Assembly: GCA_017453245.1 (NCBI GenBank) | Contig: JAFTKM010000020.1 | Coordinates: 877 to 64,876 of the forward strand | DNA: 64,000 bases | Origin: Clostridia bacterium | GTDB lineage: Bacteria > Bacillota > Clostridia > Oscillospirales > CAG-272 | Reading direction: 5' to 3' | In this document: in pieces, positions 1 through 32,870 of the stretch | Layout of the letters: each line of letters starts with the position of its first letter | Numbering within the stretch: position 1 is the stretch's first letter | Position numbers and translations under genes: made by a program | The notes under the pieces: generated by a model | What the model was told of the DNA's origin: nothing | Seen by the model: the letters and a program-made list of their open reading frames with translations, nothing else | The model's database searches: none

Positions 1-310
1 GATATACTACTGCGCCGAGAGAAATGAGAAGGGTAATAAAAATTGAATTATCTAGATCACGCAAAATATACCACGCACGCATGATAAAGCCCATTGCGAC
101 AGCACTCAAGGCAAAGCAAAACAGGTTAACTTTTGTTCGTTCGCGAACGATGAGTGCGATTATTCCGCTTATTGCGAGGATCACTATGCCGATAATAAGC
201 GGCAAAGTGGCTTTATTTCCAATAAACAACCCCTTTGAAAGACGTGCCACAACCGAGCAAATCAATAGAAATAAGAACGATGCAGCAGAGACAACGGTGA
301 TTTTTTTCAT
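1..310 (-). CDS. hypothetical membrane protein, N-terminal part only (gene continues past left edge)
   Basis: Minus-strand ATG at 310-308 preceded by AAGGAGA. Translation MKKITVVSAASFLFLLICSVVARLSKGLFIGNKATLPLIIGIVILAISGIIALIV... stays open to position 2 and is hydrophobic. The + ORF 24..350 in the track is its shadow. Confidence 0.55.
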   Translation of the reverse strand, partial: MKKITVVSAASFLFLLICSVVARLSKGLFIGNKATLPLIIGIVILAISGIIALIVRERTKVNLFCFALSAVAMGFIMRAWYILRDLDNSIFITLLISLGAVVY

Positions 311-419
311 ACTCATTCTCCTTTCATTGTCTATTCATATAATAATATGAAGAAAAACGGTTGTCAAGCAAACATATGAATTGTTTATATTCTTTTTACA
401 AAAAACTTAGAAAGACCTA

Positions 420-448
420 TTGACAAAAGGATTTTTATCTGCTATAAT
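420..448 (+). promoter_or_regulatory. sigma-A type promoter of the tRNA cluster
   Basis: TTGACA 420-425, 17-nt spacer, TATAAT 443-448, 15 nt upstream of tRNA-Val. Confidence 0.6.
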
Positions 449-463
449 AGTCAAGCGAAAGAC

Positions 464-539
464 GGAAGGTTAGCTCAGTTGGGAGAGCATCTGCCTTACA
501 AGCAGAGGGTCACAGGTTCGAGCCCTGTACTTTCCACCA
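464..539 (+). tRNA. tRNA-Val (anticodon TAC), CCA encoded
   Basis: Hand-folded cloverleaf: acceptor GGAAGGT/ACTTTCC, D arm GCTCAGTTGGGAGAGC, anticodon stem TCTGC/GCAGA with loop CTTACAA, T arm ACAGG-TTCGAGC-CCTGT, ACCA end. Confidence 0.9.
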
Positions 540-579
540 TAGGAAAAATATGAGGCACAATGTTCGCTGAGAACAATCG

Positions 580-682
580 GGCTCGAAGTAGGAGCGGTAG
601 TGAATGACAGTTAATAACTGTCAGAGCCGCGAATGACCGAGCGCGCAGTTCGCGCGAGAGTCGAGCCCTGTACTTTCCACCA
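580..682 (+). repeat. structured repeat copy 1, ending in an exact duplicate of the tRNA-Val 3' end
   Basis: GGCTCGAAGTAGGAGCGGTA, then hairpin 606-622, then GAGCCGCGAATGACCGAGCGCGCAGTTCGCGCGAGAG. Positions 661-682 are identical to 518-539 of tRNA-Val (22/22). Confidence 0.85.
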
Positions 683-706
683 CGGGAGAAATCCCATACG
701 AAAAAT

Positions 707-783
707 GGCTTGGTAGCTCAGTTGGTTAGAGCGCTAGCCTGTCACGCTAGAGGTCGTGGGTTCGAGCCCCATCCGAGTCGCCA
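707..783 (+). tRNA. tRNA-Asp (anticodon GTC), CCA encoded
   Basis: Acceptor GGCTTGG/CCGAGTC, anticodon stem CTAGC/GCTAG with loop CTGTCAC, T arm GTGGG-TTCGAGC-CCCAT, GCCA end. Confidence 0.9.
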
Positions 784-802
784 TTTTTCGATAAACTCAG
801 AT

Positions 803-907
803 GGCTCGAAGTAGGAGCGGTACTGAATAACAGTCCGGTGGACTGTTAGAGCCGCGAATGACCGAGCGCGCAGTTCGCGCGAGAGTCGAGCCCCATCCGA
901 GTCGCCA
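803..907 (+). repeat. structured repeat copy 2, ending in an exact duplicate of the tRNA-Asp 3' end
   Basis: Same 5' 20 nt and 3' ~37 nt as copy 1, with a different but still perfectly paired hairpin (829-847). Positions 886-907 are identical to 762-783 of tRNA-Asp. Confidence 0.85.
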
Positions 908-927
908 TTCTCAAATTAATATGCCAC

Positions 928-1003
928 GCGGATTTAGCTCATTTGGTAGAGCGCCACCTTGCCAAGGTGGAGGTGGCGGGTTCGAGCCCCGTAATCCGCT
1001 CCA
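928..1003 (+). tRNA. tRNA-Gly (anticodon GCC), CCA encoded
   Basis: Acceptor GCGGATT/AATCCGC, anticodon stem CCACC/GGTGG with loop TTGCCAA, T arm GCGGG-TTCGAGC-CCCGT, TCCA end. Confidence 0.9.
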
Positions 1004-1012
1004 TAAAAGACA

Positions 1013-1039
1013 CCCCGAGTTCACTCGGGGTTGTTTTTT
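1013..1039 (+). terminator. rho-independent terminator
   Basis: CCCCGAG-TTCA-CTCGGGG followed by TTGTTTTTT. Confidence 0.75.
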
Positions 1040-1052
1040 ATCTTCGATTTGG

Positions 1053-1214
1053 GGCTCGAACGAGTTTGAGTTCCATTCGAGTCGCATAGTCCTGAGTCTT
1101 CGTCTTCGCAAGTCTCCGACTTGCCTCACTCCTTGCTTTGTCGAACATCGCTCACAAAAGCAACACTCAGTTGTTTTTGTATCGCTAACCCGTAATCCGC
1201 TCCATAAAAGACAC
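1053..1214. repeat. structured repeat copy 3 (divergent, inverted relative to copies 1 and 2), ending in a duplicate of the tRNA-Gly 3' end plus flank
   Basis: Positions 1189-1214 are identical to 988-1013 (26/26). The core, about 1070-1187, aligns to the reverse complement of 33768-33887 with blocks of 9/10 and 29/36 identity. Confidence 0.75.
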
Positions 1215-1242
1215 TCGACGAGGGTGTCTTTTTTCTTTTTTT
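1208..1242 (+). terminator. rho-independent terminator (probably the original tRNA-Gly terminator)
   Basis: AAGACAC-TCGACGAGG-GTGTCTT followed by a long T run. The 5' arm lies inside the duplicated flank. Confidence 0.7.
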
Positions 1243-1613
1243 CGGTAATAGCAACCTTTCAAACAAACGCGTTACCTGCCATATAACTTAACTATCCAGA
1301 GAGGAACTGTCGGATTGAATATATTTGACAACCGGTAGGGAAGTGTGCATGCAAATTTCGGATCAGGAGTCAAAAACGGGCGTAAATAACTTTTTCTTCC
1401 TATTATATCAATCGCGCGAGAGGGTGTAGAAAATCTGTCAAAGTTTTCAAGGTATGCATATAAAAGCGCATGAATGAATATTCTGCATAAAAAATGATAG
1501 AAAATATGGTAATTATAACTAAAATGCCAATGGATTTTTTGGCAATAATCACCTAAAATTCAATAGATTAATAAAACGAAGAAGGGTATTACAAACTCTC
1601 ATACCCAAAACTC

Positions 1614-5680: not shown

Positions 5681-7285
5681 ATGGCAAAAGAATTGAATAT
5701 TAACTTGATCCCTAAGGAAAAGCTTGTCTTTGCCAACACGGGCGAGAAGATAAGGGATCAGAAATTTGAAGATAAGCCGATTGGATATTTCCATGATGCT
5801 TGGAATCGTTTTTGCAAAAACAAGGCGTCTATTGTAGCCGCTTTAATCATTATTTGTATAATTTTGTTTGCAATTATAGTGCCTTTCTTCAATGCGAGCG
5901 GCAGCGGTACCAGCGCAGACACTAGATACATGAAGAAAACTCCACGTAATCTTCTTCTTTCTAAAATCGGAATTGCCACAGGCTATGAGACTAGCGAGTA
6001 CCGTGATACCGCACTTATCCAGTTTGCAGCTATCGGTATTGGTTCAAGAGAGGATCTTCTGAACATTCCTACCATTGGAGATGCTCTTGCGGAGGACGAC
6101 TTCCTTCAGCCTGTTAAAAAGATCAACGACTCTTACTCCGTACAACAGGGTAAGAATAAGACTCTCTTCTACGATGCGACCGTAGATACTTATCTTCAGG
6201 TAGGATTCACGTATGAGTACGTTGAGCAGAGCGAGTATGCAAAGATTCTCGCTTGGCAGGAAGAGACAGGCATTCAGGTTCTCTATCCTATGATTGCGGA
6301 GAATGAATATAACTTCTATTATTCTACCAGCGGCGTATCCGATCCGAACTGGTGGTATAAGACCAACAACAAGGGTCAGCCTGTTCGTATCAATCAGTCC
6401 GGAAACGCGACCACTATCAAGTACAATGATATTTCCGAGGTCAAACTCGTTGACAACTATATGCGCGACTCTGAGGGTAATCTTAAGTATTGGACCTACT
6501 CGGGTGGTGGAGATGACACCACTGCTATGTATAAGGTGAGAGTTCTTTACTACAACTACTATCGTTACAACCACGACGGCAGAGAGCCTCAGTTTATTTT
6601 CGGTACTGACAGCGTAGGTTATGATCTTGCTTATCGTATGGCTATCGGTATTCGTCTAAGCCTTATCCTCTCCGTTTGTATATTCGCTATTAACTTCATT
6701 CTCGGCGCTATTTACGGCTCTATCGAGGGTTACTACGGCGGTGCTGCCGATCTTACGATGGAGTTTATCAGCTATATTCTTTCGGGTATCCCCTTCATCG
6801 TTGTATCCACCTTGTTCCAAATGCATCTGGCCGCCAAGGTCGGACCGATACCAAGCTTACTGTTCGCATTCGTTCTGACCGGATGGATAGGTACGGCGAG
6901 CCTTGTAAGAACTCAGTTCTACAGATTTAAGAATCAGGAATACGTTATGGCGGCGAGAACTCTTGGCGCACGTGACAGAAGAATTATTCTTAAGCATATA
7001 TTCCCGAACACGCTCGGTACGATCATTACCTCGTCCGTTCTTGCTATTCCGGGTGTTATCTTCTCCGAATCTATGCTCTCATACCTCGGTATAGTTAACC
7101 TCGGTGGAACAAAGACTACCTCTCTCGGTACGCTCCTTTCTGATGCGTCCACTATCTGGAAGTCTGTTCCTCACCTTATGCTATTCCCGGCAGCGGTTAT
7201 ATCGTTGCTTATGATATGCTTCAACCTGTTCGGCAACGGTCTTCGTGACGCATTCAATCCATCGCTAAGAGGAGTGGAGGAGTAA
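5681..7285 (+). CDS. ABC transporter permease (OppC/DppC-like) with a ~260-aa extracytoplasmic loop after TM1
   Basis: The ATG at 5681 follows GGGAGAAAG and the upstream stop. The C-terminal half is OppC-like (RTLGARDRRIILKHIFPNTLG). Confidence 0.8.
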   Translation: MAKELNINLIPKEKLVFANTGEKIRDQKFEDKPIGYFHDAWNRFCKNKASIVAALIIICIILFAIIVPFFNASGSGTSADTRYMKKTPRNLLLSKIGIATGYETSEYRDTALIQFAAIGIGSREDLLNIPTIGDALAEDDFLQPVKKINDSYSVQQGKNKTLFYDATVDTYLQVGFTYEYVEQSEYAKILAWQEETGIQVLYPMIAENEYNFYYSTSGVSDPNWWYKTNNKGQPVRINQSGNATTIKYNDISEVKLVDNYMRDSEGNLKYWTYSGGGDDTTAMYKVRVLYYNYYRYNHDGREPQFIFGTDSVGYDLAYRMAIGIRLSLILSVCIFAINFILGAIYGSIEGYYGGAADLTMEFISYILSGIPFIVVSTLFQMHLAAKVGPIPSLLFAFVLTGWIGTASLVRTQFYRFKNQEYVMAARTLGARDRRIILKHIFPNTLGTIITSSVLAIPGVIFSESMLSYLGIVNLGGTKTTSLGTLLSDASTIWKSVPHLMLFPAAVISLLMICFNLFGNGLRDAFNPSLRGVEE

Positions 7286-26213: not shown

Positions 26214-29200
26214 ATGAAACAACGTTTGCAATCACTTTTTAGATTTATGCGGCGCAACCGCGCTTTGACCAAGATCATTTCCTTCGCCCTTTCATTAATC
26301 TTGGTATTCTACGTGATACCATCAACCATATACACCAAAGCCGCGGAGCTTTTGGATGGCTCGGATGAGCCTATCTCCGAGGTTGATGCCTCGTCGAGCT
26401 CTGCAGGCTCTACAAATACTTCACAACCGACCGGCGTGCTCTTTGAGGACATATCCCTAAGAGAAGAAAGCGTAAAGCACTTCCACCTAGAGGACGGAAC
26501 ATACCTCGCCGCTCAGTACAATTACCCCGTACATACCCTCGACAGTGATGGTGCGTGGCAGGATATAGATAACGCACTCTCAGAGTCGGGCAGTGAGTTC
26601 ATCAACAGTAACGCTCGAATCAAGTTCGCTAAGAAGATAAACGGCTCGAGCGAGCTCTTTGCCCTCCACGACGGAAATACTAAGCTCACCCTCACGCTTA
26701 TCGACGCCATAAAAGGCGTAGTAGGCGAGGTAACGAATAACAGCGACGCAGAAGCGGATACGAAGCTCCAGAAGATGATGAATCTCGAGAAGCTCTCCGC
26801 AAGCGTTATATACCGAGATATCCTCGACGGAGTAGACCTCGAGTACGTAGCCTACTCAATGAACGTCAAGGAGAATATTATAGTCAAGGAGAAAAAAGAC
26901 TCCTACACCTACTCCTTTGAGCTCAAGCTCAACGGTCTCACTCCCACCCTCACCGAAAATGGAGATATTGAGATCAGAGAGGATGGCGCGGATGAGATAA
27001 AGTACCTTATCCCCGCACCCGTGGTGTTTGACGCAAACGGTGAGCACGCACCGAGCACCGCATCCGCATATACCCTCACGCACAAGAACGGTAAGAAATA
27101 TATCCTTACTGTCACCGTAGACAGCGCGTGGATGAATGATGAAACGAGAGCCTTTCCCGTGACGGTGGATCCGACGGTAGAGGATGCTAATACGCAAATA
27201 ACGGATACATATATAGATTTTCAGAATAGCACCTTTAGAGGAAATACAAGTACGCTTCTTTATGTTGATAGCAGGAAAAATGCCTATTGGTCAAGTGAAA
27301 ACCTTCCCACTATTCCAAGATCAGCAAATATCGTTGATGCTACGTTTAAGATCACTGTAGCAGGATTAGGTATGAACAGTTATATCGGTGTATACGATCT
27401 TGTGACAGGATGGGATAGCAGCTTATGTGCAGACTACTACTCTAATTACGGGGACGGAATACTGAATAGCCTTGCAACGGATTACTGCTACGTAACTGGA
27501 GTAGGAAATTACACCTTTGATATAACGAGAATAGTTAAGTCTTGGTATGACGGTAATGAAGGAGGAAATATTCTCTTTCAGTATGGAATAGGCTTTGCAC
27601 CTCTTAGCGGTTATTCCGCAAGCGTTTGGTTTCATTCTAATGAAGCAAGCGATAGCAGCGTTAGACCTACCCTTACTATTACCTACAAGGATATGAAGGG
27701 AGTAGAGTCATATTGGCCCATCACTTCTCATGGCGCGGGCACGGCAGGCTCCGGAAGCGTAAACCTTGCAAACGGTAATCTTGTGTTTACAATTCCTACG
27801 CTTACTGCAACGGATAGCATCTTCTCATTTACACCTACTCTGGTGTATGATGCTTCTATGTCCGGTAAGGCTTATTACGATCAGACCTCCGGGATAGGCG
27901 TAACGACCCCGTTTCTCGGATACGGTTTTAAGCTGAATATGAATGAGACACTCAGATGCCAATCTGACGATGACGTAACCGTATACTACGTATATTCGGA
28001 TGCAGATGGAACTGAGCACCGTTTATTGGAAGATGGAACCACAAATACACACAAGGATGAGGACGGTCTCGGACTCACTCTTACCACGGATTCAAGCGGA
28101 AACGTTATTATATCGAGCGAATCAGGTGGTATTAGATTCTTCGAGAAGGTATCTCATGCAGATTTTGGTACCAGATGGAGACTCTCGTATTATCAGGATG
28201 TCTACGGCAACAGACTTGTGTATTCGTATATGCAAATTTATTATGATCTCTTTAAGCCGACTAAGGTATCCTTACTTCCAAACGGTCATACAACAGCGAT
28301 TGATCTTTTAGAGCTCCGTTATCATTCAACTACCGGCAAGCTTATAATGGTATATAATCCCGCGACGGAGGCTGCCGCAGTGCTGAGATACTCGAGCACG
28401 TATAACGGAGACATAGTGTCCGGCGGATATATGTACTTAAGACAGATAGATTATGCTTACGGAAATTCTTCTGTTACAAGCGATAATTGGGATGCCTTTG
28501 CTCTTGATGTAAACTCAGCTACCAACATCTCCGTATACAGTACAGCTAAGTATAACTATGACTCTGCGGGCAGACTTATTGAAGCGCAGGACGTAACAAA
28601 TGGAACTTCGATTAAGTATACTTGGCAGAATTATAATTTAACCGGAGTAAAAGAATACGCGGGAACAACTCTCGGTCAGCAGCTTGGCTTCAGCTACGAC
28701 GTAGGCTTTGCCGAAGTGCGAGCTACAGGAAACGACGAGATACTTGACACATCTGACGATATCCTCACACGTTATACTATGGATATCTACGGCAGAGCGG
28801 TAAGCGTTTACTCCTGCTCGTCCGACGGAAGCGAGATGTACGGAGCGACCTCGGGTGTGTATGATGATGCAAGCCGTGAGAATAATCTTAAGAACAAGGC
28901 TGTAGTCGGCGGCTCAGCGGTCAATTTTCTTCTCAACGGAGATTTTGAGGAGTTTGATGCAAACGGTAATTTCTTGCATTGGACCCACGATAGCTTAGTA
29001 CTCGATTATGAATCTTATCCACAGAGCGACTTTGGTTATAATATGGCAGGATTCACCCCGACAACCACTCAGGATGCGACCTTATCTCAGACGGTATTCC
29101 TCCCAGCGGGTGAGTACAATTTGTCTATGATCTACGTTTCAAGATCATGTCTTAATTATGAGGCTGAGGTAAGCGTTACATCTACGGTAGGCTCGGGACT

Positions 29201-32200
29201 AAGTCTTACAGAGAGCTTGTTTCTCAACAAGGAGTCTGTAACTCTTAAAAAGTCTTCGTTCTCCACGTCCTTTGAGATTGCATCTTACCAAAGCGGAGGA
29301 GATTACGTTGAGATAAAAATTACTGTGGGAAGAAACGCGGCAGGTAGTAACTCTAGAATTTTCAAGATCGACAACGTGATGCTCTCCAATACCGTTGGCG
29401 CTGCAGATTACTCGTTTGTAAGATATGGAAACTTTGAAGCAAATTCGCTTGGTTCGGGCAGCACTATAGTACCTGTGAGTCGACATTTAGCATACATTAA
29501 TGAATATTCCATAGATACCGCGTATATTAACGGCACTATTTATGATTCCTTAAGGATAGAACATGGCTTAGAAGACTGCTTTGTGCGGCAACGTATATAC
29601 GAGGTCAATGAGGATGATCTTTTATATTACGGTACACAAGACTTTCAGAGCAACGCTACCGGGGATTATATAATATCCGGTTTTGCCTATGCGCCCAATG
29701 CTATCTGTACAGACGATTCCGACGTAAAGATCAGCGTATACGTTCATTACTATCAGGGCGAGGGAAAGGTTGACGAGTTGGTAATTCACGAATTTGAATT
29801 CCTTCCCGGAATAGATAACTGGCAGTTTCTTAGTGGCTCGTTCAGCACGAAAATTATACCGGAATCCGAGAGTGAAAGAAATAAGTATGTTTGCGTTAGC
29901 GCTATAGATATTTATTATGAATATAATAATCAGCCTTACGGGTATGCGCTCTTTGATAATATATCTATCATCAGAGCAGACGTAGATAATTACGTGGAAT
30001 ATGCGTATTACACCGAGGGAGACAAAAAAGGCTTGCTCTCTATGAAGCGCACTTCGGACTATACGGAATACTACGATTACGATGAGAATAAGAACCTTAG
30101 TGCCGTAGCAACGAGTGACGGTGATATGACGTTCTACTACTATAATTCAAGTAATCCTCATCAGCTCTCGTATATTGTGCAGAGCAGATATGCATATAAT
30201 GCAGAAAACTACTATCCCGTGACGAATGCATTACCCTTCTCGTCGAGTAATATATATTACAAAACCAAGACGGAGTATAGTTATGACAATTATGGAAACG
30301 TAGAGGGAATTTTAGTTTCGTCTATGAATGAGGATACAGAAGTAAAGACGACTCGCACTTCGTTTACTTATGAGGTTACAGCAGGCTCTGTAATATTTGG
30401 AGCACTACTATCCGAAACAGATGAAACAGGAACGACTATTCGCTACTATTACGACCCCGACACGTGTATGCTTGATGCCACGGTGAACGAGACCTCGGGC
30501 AACGGTCTTGTGTATAACTACGATAGCCTGCGCAGACTTGTCTCAGTAACTCCCGGGCAGTACGTATCGAGCTCGTCCTATACCGAAACAACCAATGCTG
30601 AAAAGGTAGAATATACCTACGGTACCGACCATATGTTGGAGGAGATATCCACCGTTTCTACCAACTATACCTTCTCTTACGATGAGTTCGGTAACAGAGT
30701 ATGGGTAAAGGCGGGAGATAACACTCTTGCATCCTATGAGTACGCAGAAAAGAACGGAAAGCTCAAGAAAACTACCTATGGAAACGGATTTGTCGTAGAA
30801 TATGTGTATAATGACCTTGAAAATCTTTCCGAGATATGGTATACTGAAGGTGAAGGCGCGAGTGTTAAAGCGTACGAGTACGAGTATACCACAGACGGAC
30901 AGATACACAGAGTCAAGGATAACATAAACGGAAGGCAGACAGTTTACACTTACGATAGCCGTAACAGAGTAGCAAATATCTCAAGCAGTTCTACGGACGA
31001 CTCGTATAATGATCTGTTTACGTACGTAGAGTATGACGATATTGGTAGAGTAACTTATAATTCTACTTATGTAAACATACTTGGAAGTACAACGTATGAT
31101 GATGGCGCGGTTGCTTATATGTACTCCTATAATGGAGAAAATAATCAGCTGAGTCAAATGTTAATAAATACTACAGGTGCAAACGGCGGTATCGACTATA
31201 CCTACGATGAACTGTTTAGGTTGAGTACGGAAGATGTGACTCTGGGATCATTTGACGTATCTTACACCTACAACTACAAGAATTACGGTGATTATACCTC
31301 CGGTCAGATTGGAAGCGTAACGACAACGGTTAATGAAACCACGACCAAGAGTGCAACATACTCATATAGTCCTGATGGTAATATTACCAAGATAACTTAT
31401 AGTGACGGCACTTACGTAACATATACGTATGACGACCTTGGCCAGCTGACAAGAGAGTGTAATACAGCGCTGGGTTATAGCTACACGTACACCTATGATA
31501 ACGCGGGTAATATTACTCAGACTACTAAAGAGTTGATCGATGCCGATGACGATGATGGACCTATCGCAATATATGAAATTGGTTCCGAGTCGGAAACCTT
31601 AGCCGTTAATCCGAATTTATCGTTATTACCGCTGACCAGAACTTATAGCTATACGAACTCTCAGTGGGGAGATCTTTTAACTGCATATAACGGAACGGCT
31701 ATAACCTATGATGATATAGGAAATCCACTCAGCTATTACAATGGCTCAAGTTACATCTTCACGTGGGATGGACGCAGACTTGCTACCGCTGTTAAGGGCT
31801 CCAATTCTATGTCCTTTACATATAATGATGACGGGCTTAGAGTGACTAAAACCGTTAACGGCGTTGTAACCACTTACTATTACCAGGGCTCACTTCTTAT
31901 AGCGGAAGAAACAAATTCGCAAATCTTAGTTTACATATATGATACTAACGGTTCACCTGTGGGCTTTAAGTACAGGGGCGCGGATTACGAAAGTGGCGTT
32001 TGGGATGCTTATGCTTATGAGAAAAACATTCAAGGTGATATAGTTGCGGTATATGATGTCGCAACCGGTAATAAATTGATAGCATATAAGTACAATGCTT
32101 GGGGTGTTTGCTCTACAAGCTACTACAACAGCGGTTCTACCACTACTGCAACAAAGAATTCGTTTAAGTACAGAGGATATTACTACGATTCCAACCTCGG

Positions 32201-32870
32201 ATTGTATTATTTGCAGAGTAGATACTATGATCCGAATACTTGTAGATTCATAAATGCGGATGGATATGTATCAACAGGGCAAGGATTGCTTGATTATAAT
32301 ATGTTCATGTATTGCAATAACAATCCTGTAGTGTTTAGTGACGAATCCGGATATGCTCCTAAATGGATAGAAACGATGATAGATATTGCTTTATATTTTG
32401 TTTCGGCAGTAATATCCGTGGCAACTGCAACCATAGAAACTACTCATAATGTGATTGAAGGAGAAGGAATTATTGATTCAATGGCCGCGGGGGTTGAAAC
32501 AGGAATAGCCACCTTTGGAACAATCAATAATAAGGTAAATGAAATTTACTACAACAACTATTCTACCGGAAATAGTGAATTGACATCGAGTAGTTATCAA
32601 GGTGGATATATTAACCGATGGGATCGCCTAGATTATACTAAGCAACAGACTGAGCAGAGCACATATAATGCTACTGCATGGTTATATTTTAGCGAATATA
32701 ATCTGCATATGTATGCATGGTATGCGTGCGGATGGGCGTATGATACAAAGATTCCTGTTTTTTCGGACATAGCACATAGTGCATATTCCGCAGAAGTTGA
32801 GGTCGGGAAAATGGATGAGAGACCGTTTGTAATGTTCGGAACTCTTGTCATAGGTTATCTGGGATTATAA
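26214..32870 (+). CDS. RHS/YD-repeat polymorphic toxin (2218 aa) with a variable C-terminal toxin domain
   Basis: GGAGG RBS and an N-terminal signal-anchor. Many YD repeats (YSYDNYGNV, FSYDEFGNRV, YTYDSRNRV, YTYDNAGNIT). RHS core end YRGYYYDSNLGLYYLQSRYYDPNTCRFINAD...MYCNNNPVVFSDESG, then a ~170-aa unrelated tip. Confidence 0.9.
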   Translation: MKQRLQSLFRFMRRNRALTKIISFALSLILVFYVIPSTIYTKAAELLDGSDEPISEVDASSSSAGSTNTSQPTGVLFEDISLREESVKHFHLEDGTYLAAQYNYPVHTLDSDGAWQDIDNALSESGSEFINSNARIKFAKKINGSSELFALHDGNTKLTLTLIDAIKGVVGEVTNNSDAEADTKLQKMMNLEKLSASVIYRDILDGVDLEYVAYSMNVKENIIVKEKKDSYTYSFELKLNGLTPTLTENGDIEIREDGADEIKYLIPAPVVFDANGEHAPSTASAYTLTHKNGKKYILTVTVDSAWMNDETRAFPVTVDPTVEDANTQITDTYIDFQNSTFRGNTSTLLYVDSRKNAYWSSENLPTIPRSANIVDATFKITVAGLGMNSYIGVYDLVTGWDSSLCADYYSNYGDGILNSLATDYCYVTGVGNYTFDITRIVKSWYDGNEGGNILFQYGIGFAPLSGYSASVWFHSNEASDSSVRPTLTITYKDMKGVESYWPITSHGAGTAGSGSVNLANGNLVFTIPTLTATDSIFSFTPTLVYDASMSGKAYYDQTSGIGVTTPFLGYGFKLNMNETLRCQSDDDVTVYYVYSDADGTEHRLLEDGTTNTHKDEDGLGLTLTTDSSGNVIISSESGGIRFFEKVSHADFGTRWRLSYYQDVYGNRLVYSYMQIYYDLFKPTKVSLLPNGHTTAIDLLELRYHSTTGKLIMVYNPATEAAAVLRYSSTYNGDIVSGGYMYLRQIDYAYGNSSVTSDNWDAFALDVNSATNISVYSTAKYNYDSAGRLIEAQDVTNGTSIKYTWQNYNLTGVKEYAGTTLGQQLGFSYDVGFAEVRATGNDEILDTSDDILTRYTMDIYGRAVSVYSCSSDGSEMYGATSGVYDDASRENNLKNKAVVGGSAVNFLLNGDFEEFDANGNFLHWTHDSLVLDYESYPQSDFGYNMAGFTPTTTQDATLSQTVFLPAGEYNLSMIYVSRSCLNYEAEVSVTSTVGSGLSLTESLFLNKESVTLKKSSFSTSFEIASYQSGGDYVEIKITVGRNAAGSNSRIFKIDNVMLSNTVGAADYSFVRYGNFEANSLGSGSTIVPVSRHLAYINEYSIDTAYINGTIYDSLRIEHGLEDCFVRQRIYEVNEDDLLYYGTQDFQSNATGDYIISGFAYAPNAICTDDSDVKISVYVHYYQGEGKVDELVIHEFEFLPGIDNWQFLSGSFSTKIIPESESERNKYVCVSAIDIYYEYNNQPYGYALFDNISIIRADVDNYVEYAYYTEGDKKGLLSMKRTSDYTEYYDYDENKNLSAVATSDGDMTFYYYNSSNPHQLSYIVQSRYAYNAENYYPVTNALPFSSSNIYYKTKTEYSYDNYGNVEGILVSSMNEDTEVKTTRTSFTYEVTAGSVIFGALLSETDETGTTIRYYYDPDTCMLDATVNETSGNGLVYNYDSLRRLVSVTPGQYVSSSSYTETTNAEKVEYTYGTDHMLEEISTVSTNYTFSYDEFGNRVWVKAGDNTLASYEYAEKNGKLKKTTYGNGFVVEYVYNDLENLSEIWYTEGEGASVKAYEYEYTTDGQIHRVKDNINGRQTVYTYDSRNRVANISSSSTDDSYNDLFTYVEYDDIGRVTYNSTYVNILGSTTYDDGAVAYMYSYNGENNQLSQMLINTTGANGGIDYTYDELFRLSTEDVTLGSFDVSYTYNYKNYGDYTSGQIGSVTTTVNETTTKSATYSYSPDGNITKITYSDGTYVTYTYDDLGQLTRECNTALGYSYTYTYDNAGNITQTTKELIDADDDDGPIAIYEIGSESETLAVNPNLSLLPLTRTYSYTNSQWGDLLTAYNGTAITYDDIGNPLSYYNGSSYIFTWDGRRLATAVKGSNSMSFTYNDDGLRVTKTVNGVVTTYYYQGSLLIAEETNSQILVYIYDTNGSPVGFKYRGADYESGVWDAYAYEKNIQGDIVAVYDVATGNKLIAYKYNAWGVCSTSYYNSGSTTTATKNSFKYRGYYYDSNLGLYYLQSRYYDPNTCRFINADGYVSTGQGLLDYNMFMYCNNNPVVFSDESGYAPKWIETMIDIALYFVSAVISVATATIETTHNVIEGEGIIDSMAAGVETGIATFGTINNKVNEIYYNNYSTGNSELTSSSYQGGYINRWDRLDYTKQQTEQSTYNATAWLYFSEYNLHMYAWYACGWAYDTKIPVFSDIAHSAYSAEVEVGKMDERPFVMFGTLVIGYLGL

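Follow-up and report, generated by a model that had tools for sequence, protein, structure and literature searches.

The window analyzed here is a 64-kb stretch of contig JAFTKM010000020.1 from a Clostridia bacterium, and near its left end lies an operon in which the genes for tRNA-Val, tRNA-Asp, and tRNA-Gly are each followed by an insert and by a second copy of their own 3′ end. Plain coordinates are positions in the window, and L followed by a number is the label of one analyzed locus or contig. A sequence-only reading of the region had listed three exact duplications, and re-alignment reproduced them all: tRNA-Val 518-539 equals 661-682 (22/22), tRNA-Asp 762-783 equals 886-907 (22/22, with identity continuing 2 nt further right, to 24), and tRNA-Gly plus its flank, 988-1013, equals 1189-1214 (26/26). 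The inserts measure 121, 102, and 175 nt, respectively, as that reading had given them. Its proposal that the Val and Asp duplicates start within the T-loop could be made more precise, as both begin exactly at T55, 22 nt from the tRNA 3′ end; the Gly duplicate is exact from C62 and degenerate when read from T55 (TCGCTAACCCG vs. TCGAGCCCCG). The two terminators that it described, one behind tRNA-Gly and one behind the orphan Gly tail, are also present, at 1012-1031 and 1206-1232. The identical sequence is found in independent ENA and Logan assemblies, so the arrangement is not an assembly artifact.

One structured module, here termed class 1, accounts for both the Val and the Asp insert, each of which is a copy of ~108 nt. 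Core segments of 37 and 20 nt each occur exactly twice in the 64-kb window, where shuffled sequences would be expected to yield 0.00-0.01 occurrences, and a search of the window with a covariance model of the module (R1) found nothing beyond the Val and Asp copies. The common core that the sequence-only reading had ascribed to three separate events is thus shared by these two inserts, whereas the Gly insert is a separate module class. Each class-1 module consists of a 5′ arm complementary to T55-C62 of the upstream tRNA, a conserved three-way junction of ~75 nt, and a second version of the tRNA 3′ portion, T55 through CCA, behind which the same tRNA's terminator is often duplicated as well. 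The arm is the Watson-Crick complement of the adjacent upstream tRNA from T55 to approximately C62, and extends to position 70 in some copies. The junction carries a long hairpin (P2) and a short hairpin with a CGCA loop (P3), the latter lengthened by tandem G·A pairs, and is closed by a helix (P1) for which the duplicated tail supplies the 3′ strand with its first nucleotides (T55-C62). The features of the operon and of its two class-1 modules are as follows.

420-448 (+): promoter of the tRNA operon, TTGACA, 17-nt spacer, TATAAT, and TG extension; consensus match 12/12
464-539 (+): intact tRNA-Val(TAC) gene (ARAGORN; Rfam tRNA, 69.6 bits)
540-578 (+): spacer from tRNA-Val to its module, ~70% identical to the ortholog L012
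579-682 (+): class-1 module for tRNA-Val (R1, 95.9 bits, E=4e-23 at 574-682)
579-586/661-668 (+): P1 of the Val module, with J12 at 587-593
594-598/626-630 and 605-613/615-623 (+): P2 of the Val module, with J23 at 631-640
641-645/651-655 (+): P3 of the Val module, with J31 at 656-660
661-682 (+): tail of the Val module, equal to tRNA-Val T55-A76
707-783 (+): intact tRNA-Asp(GTC) gene (ARAGORN, Rfam tRNA)
784-802 (+): spacer from tRNA-Asp to its module, of which 795-802 is able to lengthen P1 by pairing with the tail up to tRNA-copy position 70
803-907 (+): class-1 module for tRNA-Asp (R1, 100.6 bits, E=2e-24 at 797-907)
803-809/886-892 (+): P1 of the Asp module
817-821/851-855 and 828-836/840-848 (+): P2 of the Asp module
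866-870/876-880 (+): P3 of the Asp module
886-907 (+): tail of the Asp module, a copy of tRNA-Asp T55-A76
928-1003 (+): intact tRNA-Gly(GCC) gene (ARAGORN, Rfam tRNA)
1012-1031 (+): first intrinsic terminator, directly 3′ of tRNA-Gly, 8-bp stem and T-run
1189-1214 (+): exact 26-nt duplicate of 988-1013, from tRNA-Gly C62 to CCA plus 10 nt of trailer (re-alignment)
1206-1232 (+): second intrinsic terminator, 3′ of the orphan Gly tail, 11-bp stem and T-run

In the minimum free energy fold of the Asp module, ACUC.GAU pairs with AUC.GAGU and a CGCCA overhang is left. Read from its sequence, the arm of this module is nearer to the complement of the tRNA 3′ strand than to the tRNA's own 5′ strand, which indicates an antisense copy rather than a tRNA remnant. 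No further promoter-like site was predicted on the + strand between 449 and 1497, including the stretches before the modules, and the modules are therefore probably transcribed together with the tRNAs. In several loci TAnAAT-like hexamers of the A+T-rich spacer abut the arm, and a transcription start directed by them would fall inside P1. The earlier statement that the inserts hold no open reading frame (ORF) is right in substance: a mechanical ORF of 142 amino acids (858-1286) crosses the Asp module, tRNA-Gly, and the Gly insert, and appears in gene calls (L171:3038-3466) without a family match, but it is almost certainly spurious.

Further copies in related genomes, which the sequence-only reading had suggested looking for, were collected with a pattern made from the two junction strands and applied to a species-representative genome collection. 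The core pattern returned 45 loci, all of them in Clostridia save for one chance match (Thiomonas). The hosts are ~30 genomes, mostly metagenome-assembled genomes of Acutalibacteraceae from human, ruminant, and other guts, with up to seven modules per genome, and the modules of the family score 83-124 bits with R1. Nearly all modules have a tRNA gene 25-70 nt upstream of them on the same strand, and 33 modules elsewhere obey the order, first read in the window, of intact tRNA, insert, and orphan 3′ end. In the 33 modules compared the tail corresponds to the last 22 nt of the upstream tRNA, without a single mismatch in 22 of them and with differences at only 12/726 positions overall. Approximately 19 tRNA identities are served, namely Lys, Leu, Thr, Ser (several isoacceptors), Trp, Arg (three isoacceptors), Val, Asp, Gln (two), Gly, Tyr, Asn, Met, and a probable Ala, and a phage copy described below adds a Leu-type tail. 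Nearly all copies have their right junction at T54/T55, whereas the left one varies. On its right side the duplication ends 0-55 nt beyond CCA, often taking in the terminator, so that the duplication spans 22-77 nt overall; where the terminators of tRNA and module differ, they are often recognizably related. Tandem arrays of modules occur at L016/L023, L022, L032, and L041.

No copy away from a tRNA gene was seen in the Clostridial family, the phage copy aside, and a plasmid collection gave no module match. A loose pattern applied to metagenomes was swamped by chance matches in G+C-rich contigs, with L047 and L101 as the only real ones. No Rfam family (Rfam 15), including self-cleaving ribozymes, introns, and riboswitches, matched the inserts at the gathering threshold or at E≤10 (window 300-1500), and none matched the module on four further loci (L008, L015, L020, and L022). 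Literature searches for such a motif returned nothing beyond RtT, an RNA family of Escherichia coli that is compared with the modules below. The family is previously uncatalogued. Contigs L172, L173, L174, L285, L286, and L287, from other samples and related species, end 0.8-1.1 kb upstream of a transporter gene and inside tRNA/module repeats; modules fragment short-read assemblies and are therefore probably under-counted in metagenome-assembled genomes. At L015:6300-6500, downstream of a module with a decayed tail, there are tandem repeats of ~91 nt that contain the palindrome GGTCCCCACCGGGGACC.

An alignment of 39 distinct modules (A2) was the basis of the pairing counts. In the proposed structure 94% of the cells are paired, compared with 80% in shuffles and 30-42% with slid partners, and 15 pairs have changes on both sides. 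RNAalifold independently finds P1, P2, and P3, and adds a C-G pair that brackets the tandem G·A under P3. P2 and P3 together contain 44 G·U pairs vs. 3 A·C on the tRNA-sense strand, indicating that the fold is under selection on that strand. Compensatory changes in P2 are already visible between the Val and Asp copies of the window, and orthologous modules extend the pattern: L018 and L024 differ by a C-G to U-A double change in both P2 and P3, L040 and L042 likewise show compensatory double changes, and between the window and L012 a G-C pair of P2 has become A-U while the core is otherwise identical save for a loop and the adjoining spacer is only ~70% identical. P1, which is usually 8-9 bp and at most 16 bp long, covaries with the tRNA, since the arm follows T-loop positions 59 and 60 (columns 8/104 and 9/103). 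Taken together, the covariation, the compensatory changes, and the G·U bias show that the module fold is selected as RNA. In addition, two independently found variants (the phage module at L166 and L101) swap the GGA/GAA purines of the junction for Watson-Crick pairs, which suggests that these purines stack as a continuation of P2.

Several other readings of the core were considered and rejected. A coding reading, prompted by AGGAG and AUG inside the core, fails on hairpin variants that alter frame and residues yet keep the pairs. Pairing of a UGG in the P2 loop with CCA, in the manner of a T-box, is contradicted by a loop that varies regardless of the tail, and a kink-turn in P2 is inconsistent across the three P2 variants. 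Comparison of the junctions by eye with hammerhead, hairpin, and group I ribozymes showed misfitting core nucleotides, and the module is too small for group I.

The Gly insert lacks the Val/Asp core and contains only the 5′-arm-like GGGGCTCGAA, followed by a degenerate Asp-type tail at 1050-1087. It is nevertheless a different, separately conserved class of tail module on the same plan. Its relatives are ~86% identical units that form tandem arrays ahead of the orthologous transporter gene in two further species (L285:16-176, L285:258-418, and L286:68-222); each ends in a Gly tail plus terminator, and the predicted fold is conserved. The class-5 hairpin and remnant also follow a paralogous operon on the same contig (L171:1679-1706). 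Together with further types from other loci, the core classes besides class 1 are the following.

1042-1204 (+): class-5 tail module for tRNA-Gly, hairpin GGGGCUCGAA-CGAG-UUUGAGUUCC with the degenerate Asp-type tail (1050-1087) and two more predicted helices
1189-1204 (+): 3′ end of the class-5 module, an exact copy of tRNA-Gly C62-A76, preceded by TCGCTAA
L022, between two class-1 modules at tRNA-Trp: class 2, with only the junction-proximal motif UGACCGAG-hairpin-CGAGAG/UCGA in common
L008: class 3, an element of ~190 nt retaining the 5′ strand of the T-stem
L047:2700-3117 (reverse strand): class 4, tandem units of 169 nt
L020: class 4-like, a core of ~90 nt inside a class-1 module, nested in its T-loop-like P3 loop

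At L047 the class-4 core, GAGGTGTTAGAAAAC-hairpin-GTTTTCCCCGAGCGTGACCGAG-hairpin-CGAGAG, lies directly 3′ of positions 1-53 of tRNA-Pro copies; an intact tRNA-Pro comes next, and the tail after the core departs from tRNA-Pro past position 65. Classes are mixed in some arrays, with class 3 and class 1 at L008 and the series class 1, class 2, class 1 at L022. Several further orphan copies and one inverted copy of the tRNA-Met 3′ end are found at L020:5735-7130, where an XRE-type repressor and phage-like genes come next and a repeated GCTTCG-rich sequence follows tRNA-Thr.

A module-free paralogous operon is located on the same contig, ~1.5 kb upstream of the window operon (L171:1083-1445; 736-1098 nt past the left edge of the window), in the order Val, 25 nt, Asp, 28 nt, Phe, 5 nt, and a Gly-like gene. 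In the window, the orphan Val tail is followed by what is the Val-Asp spacer in the paralog, so the two operons differ there by exactly the 121-nt insert and the 22-nt duplication (~6 more nt are degenerate). TAGG, the first 4 nt of the spacer 540-578, likewise matches the trailer of the paralog, and the first 12 nt of the spacer 784-802 are similar to its Asp trailer. At L015, L036, and L287 the Val and Asp genes are also only 5-24 nt apart. The empty sites that the sequence-only reading had called for therefore exist in the form of a paralogous operon, but a clean loss would look alike, and the difference is compatible with insertion and with clean loss through the repeats. The last gene of the paralogous operon equals the tRNA-Gly(GCC) of the window but for one base, with the anticodon GCU, and was called Ser by ARAGORN; going by its sequence, it would be either a Gly-bodied tRNA reading Ser AGY codons or a dead copy.

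Two modules are chimeric. The one at L002 (reverse strand, 6492-6598) has a Lys arm and a Leu tail, and the genes around it switch accordingly, with a tRNA-Lys locus upstream and the genes of tRNA-Leu loci downstream; at L101:6689-6795 the arm and tail also come from different tRNAs. Chimeras with a switch in synteny indicate that recombination between modules rearranges genomes.

The sequence-only reading had offered a recombinase whose attP carries the core as a further object of search. We looked for partner genes by an all-against-all comparison of 379 ORFs from 44 loci, and no protein family recurs near the modules; the recurrent neighbors are only syntenic housekeeping genes (a SerA-like dehydrogenase, an ABC transporter, an RsmB/F-type methyltransferase, and EF-G). 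Neither an integrase nor a recombinase was found in or near the modules at the 44 loci, the 64-kb window contains no candidate enzyme, and no reverse transcriptase is linked to the modules. A complete class-1 variant (81 bits) occurs in one phage lineage, represented by the Oscillospirales phage PV036458 (Ca. Heliusvirales, temperate-looking) and by two IMG/VR contigs of the same phage, and it has a Leu-type tail and a terminator of its own.

L166:6000-6108 (PV036458.1:62432-62540): phage module, between early genes and a 2157-aa BspA-type leucine-rich repeat protein

The order of this unit, core, tRNA tail, and terminator, is attP-like, but no tyrosine integrase was found among the 20 phage proteins scanned. 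Three large serine recombinases lie 6-16 kb from the module, and the phage has no tRNA gene. Scans of 2.9 million viral contigs returned this phage lineage only, all other matches being chance or antisense-tRNA matches. At L039 and L031 (reverse-complemented), partial tRNA copies that run from the anticodon/variable region to CCA and are flanked by foreign DNA lie 200-900 nt upstream of modules, and at L039 a tyrosine integrase adjoins such a copy. These identity blocks begin at positions further 5′ and are situated upstream of the modules; they therefore represent ordinary integrative elements that entered the same tRNAs next to modules already present, as separate events.

We lean toward the view that the modules are a new, broad family of RtT-like tRNA-tail RNA modules, kept by selection on the RNA fold and amplified, lost, and shuffled by recombination between repeats. 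Transcription would proceed with the tRNAs from the promoter at 420-448, and the modules might be cut out by the enzymes that mature the flanking tRNAs, as may be supposed by analogy with E. coli rtT RNA. The released RNA would take the form of a clamp, held by pairing of the 5′ arm with the T-loop portion of the tail, a fold to which the covariation attests. Recombination between a tRNA 3′ end and its copy could then give rise to tandem arrays or to clean loss, and recombination between cores to chimeric modules and genome rearrangements, in keeping with the patterns seen among the loci. The matching of arms to tRNAs suggests a tRNA-specific cellular role. Of the two alternatives left by the sequence-only reading, an RNA module co-transcribed and processed with tRNAs is the better supported, given the RtT plan and the RNA-type evolution. 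Several points weigh against this view, however. The RtT model (RF00391, gathering threshold 45 bits) does not match window 300-1500 at E≤10 or L008, L015, L020, and L022 at E≤1; R1 aligns collinearly with the E. coli units but with a non-significant 5-6 bits (E about 1), and sequence homology to RtT was rejected, the best local z of 3.7 not being significant after 47 trials. Tail mismatches are over-represented at CCA (4/12), so the CCA end itself may not be functional. Many loci have an intrinsic terminator between tRNA and module with little space for a separate promoter, and such copies would be transcribable only via read-through; accumulation of the modules as RNAs is something that we infer. 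The conservation of J12 and J23 is partly forced by the pattern with which the family was collected. Finally, the RNA-module model does not account for the 12-16-bp arm-tail complementarity of some modules, nor does it explain the origin of arms matched to ~19 tRNAs, for which a templated or guided process at the DNA level would be more direct.

A serious rival, although in our estimation unlikely, is that the modules are instead non-autonomous, cassette-like mobile DNA that inserts at T54/T55 of tRNA genes and brings a replacement 3′ end and often a terminator. An equally tentative detail of this proposal is that the folded core and the arm-tail helix are recognized, as a single-strand or RNA structure, by an enzyme encoded elsewhere, and that the arm may guide the unit to its target. 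Such an element would account for the right junction that is constant at T54/T55 opposite a variable left one, and for the paralogous empty site that differs by exactly insert and duplication. The mixed-class arrays at L008 and L022, each module of which ends in the same tail, resemble att-site accretion, and the related cores nested in the P3 loop at L020 and placed directly after position 53 of truncated tRNA-Pro copies at L047 point the same way, as do the complete unit in a phage without a tRNA gene and a complementarity of 12-16 bp that is hard to reach by point mutation. Furthermore, classes 1, 2, and 4 share only ~30 nt beside the junction (UGACCGAG-hairpin-CGAGAG/UCGA). For the exact junction, the long matched arms, and the nested and phage copies, mobile DNA is a better explanation than the RNA-module reading, but it comes without an enzyme. 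No candidate was found in the window and no protein family recurs near the modules, the att sites of the three large serine recombinases of the phage are unlike the module, no tyrosine integrase is among its 20 scanned proteins, and a single lineage in 2.9 million viral contigs carries the unit. Orthologous modules that are kept across species and change compensatorily in place speak for long-term maintenance, not recent bursts, and empty sites are also expected from clean loss through direct repeats. The miniature mobile element of the sequence-only reading accordingly has the empty paralogous site, the tandem arrays, the chimeras, the nested copy, and the phage copy on its side, and the failure to find an enzyme or autonomous partner against it. 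A more far-reaching version, in which the modules and by extension RtT are a new class of self-propagating elements whose 5′ arm guides them to the T-loop/3′ strand of a tRNA and which are inserted, or have their RNA joined, at U54/U55 of that tRNA gene or transcript by an unlinked enzyme, appears to us rather improbable; it would be similarly bold to see a catalytic or recognition unit in the ~30-nt junction-proximal motif common to the core classes.

Integration into tRNA genes typically leaves direct repeats that run from the T-loop through CCA, and the sequence-only reading had accordingly seen attL/attR scars of an integrase-driven element. According to this explanation, large integrase-encoding prophages or integrative and conjugative elements entered tRNA 3′ ends and were later deleted nearly in full, as in a cis-mobilizable element, leaving the core as a surviving att arm. 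The repeats, the attP-like order of the phage copy, and the integrase-bearing elements that do occupy the same tRNAs in L039 and L031 fit it, and yet we consider it very improbable: no recombinase was found at the loci compared, a single core is joined to ~19 tRNA tails, vs. one or few att specificities per integrase family, its arm is antisense to the target, the units are uniform and compact without variable remnants of element genes, and covariation with a strand-specific G·U bias is unexpected for protein-binding arms. The elements at L039 and L031 are independent, with identity blocks from the anticodon/variable region upstream of the modules, no tyrosine integrase is among the 20 phage proteins, and modules are essentially absent from viral contigs. 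We think it just as far-fetched that the core is ribozyme- or intron-like and acts, guided by the arm, at U54/U55 of the cognate tRNA or pre-tRNA, cleaving it or swapping its 3′ half, with the genomic copies as DNA records. For this idea one may cite a junction that is exact to the nucleotide, with G (GAGAG) as the last nucleotide of the core and U54 as that of the would-be upstream partner, an arm that pairs immediately 3′ of the junction, junction-adjacent nucleotides that are invariant across classes, and several duplications whose right ends, at CCA or at the end of the terminator T-run, are RNA 3′ ends. No self-cleaving ribozyme or intron of Rfam matches even at E≤10, however; the J12/J23 purines are replaceable by Watson-Crick pairs in L101 and the phage, which speaks against a fixed catalytic core at that place, the last nucleotide of some cores is A (GAGAA), the modules have no linked reverse transcriptase, and the idea is wholly inferential. 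Least credible of all is the decay of tandem tRNA duplicates without a common element, which the sequence-only reading had named as an outcome that would overturn its proposal. Tandem duplication of tRNA genes is common and the tails are tRNA-derived, but nothing in the inserts resembles the 5′ two-thirds of a tRNA (ARAGORN and Rfam tRNA gave no signal, and no trace of a D or anticodon arm was seen), and the arm is complementary through loop positions 59-60, unlike a T-stem remnant. A non-tRNA core conserved over ~30 genomes and ~19 tRNA types contradicts such decay.

The rest of the window is ordinary chromosome, with genes for ABC transporters, NAD synthase, Mfd, a copper ATPase, an RHS protein, RNase R, and TrkH. 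The RHS-repeat protein (26214-32870; 2218 amino acids) resembles a polymorphic toxin and is unrelated to the modules.

The modules matter for genome analysis as dispersed repeats that break metagenome assemblies exactly at tRNA operons, mediate rearrangements (L002), and yield spurious ORF calls. To our knowledge, RtT has until now been without data on covariation, on the matching of arm and tail, on conservation of the junction, or on turnover among paralogous and orthologous copies, and the Clostridial comparisons can guide experiments on the function and origin of RtT-like modules. If the guided-insertion reading were true, it would amount to a programmable, RNA-structure-dependent targeting of tRNA genes.

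Compared with known systems, the modules share with the att-site repeats of elements integrated in tRNA genes, and with their deletion derivatives, the cis-mobilizable elements, the direct repeat of a tRNA 3′ segment from the T-loop, a tRNA that stays intact, and the accumulation of units at one tRNA. Unlike these, they have no integrase, join one core to many tRNAs (the same core with ~19 tRNA tails rather than one or few att specificities), carry an arm complementary to the target, covary in the manner of RNA, and measure 130-165 bp; a cognate integrase within the element, next to it, or on a related autonomous element was not found in a search confined to the loci and the 20 scanned phage proteins rather than whole genomes. 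Integron attC cassettes are alike in being small tandem units, in site structure that is conserved rather than sequence and is strand-specific, and in that what lies 3′ of the crossover is part of the following unit. The modules differ in their arms (GGNNTCGA...TCGANNCC), which lack R/L cores (RYYYAAC/GTTRRRY), in having no integron integrase or attI in the loci, and in a content that is a tRNA 3′ end anchored at a tRNA T-loop. Miniature inverted-repeat transposable elements (MITEs) and the repetitive extragenic palindromes (REP) and bacterial interspersed mosaic elements (BIME) are also short, non-coding, hairpin-forming, multi-copy, and able to mediate rearrangements. The module arms, however, change with the target tRNA (GGGCTCGA, GGATTCGA, GGAATCGA, GGGGTCGA, GGACTCGA, and others) rather than being constant ends, the duplication, whose left edge is fixed and whose right edge varies, measures 22-77 nt rather than 2-10, and the modules are limited to tRNA 3′ flanks. 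With tRNA mimics (the bacterial Y RNA YrlA, viral tRNA-like 3′ ends, and mascRNA) they have in common a structured RNA with a tRNA-type 3′ end, but most modules form no T-arm or acceptor stem and the tail is single-stranded past P1; weak YrlA matches in the window region merely overlap real tRNAs.

The closest counterpart is RtT. The tyrT repeats of E. coli, the classical "178-bp repeats," and the rtT RNA were reportedly described decades ago (Bosl and Kersten 1991). In the tyrT-tyrV locus of E. coli K-12 (L284), where rttR is annotated as a small RNA, four RF00391 (RtT) units lie in tandem behind tRNA genes, one of them between tyrT and tyrV, and each unit is closed by a 5′ arm, GGGGAAGGA, that pairs with UCCUUCCCC of a copy of the tRNA-Tyr tail (A58 to CCA). 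The rtT RNA has been reported to be processed from the tyrT operon transcript, one unit being the source of a stable RNA, and it may touch the stringent response, although its mode of action is still termed unknown in the literature. A 2010 survey found rtT similar to BIME/REP-type repeats upstream of unrelated genes (PMC2965389).

RtT units and Clostridial modules differ in that the arm corresponds to positions 60-68 in E. coli and to 55-62 here, the core of the E. coli units measures ~100 nt and branches differently, and RtT is bound to Tyr alone in enterobacteria, whereas the Clostridial family spans ~19 tRNA species, several core classes, and one phage. RtT is also linked to BIME/REP repeats, while no copies away from tRNAs were seen in the Clostridial family. 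The likenesses concern the plan itself. Both lie 3′ of a tRNA gene on the same strand, singly or in tandem, as seen here in the window and 44 loci; both end in a tRNA 3′-end copy that runs from the T-loop (T55 here, A58 in E. coli) through CCA; in both a multi-branched fold is closed by pairing between a 5′ arm and the tail copy, the RF00391 consensus having the same closing helix. A short G+C hairpin (GCAG loop in E. coli, CGCA here) and a GAG motif just before the junction are common to both, as is transcription with the tRNAs, which for the Clostridial modules we infer from the layout of promoter and terminators. As far as sequence comparison can tell, the modules share the RtT building plan but are not detectable RtT members. 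The presence of that plan (an antisense arm, a folded core, and a tRNA 3′-end copy) in a distant phylum marks it as a general class and not an oddity of E. coli.

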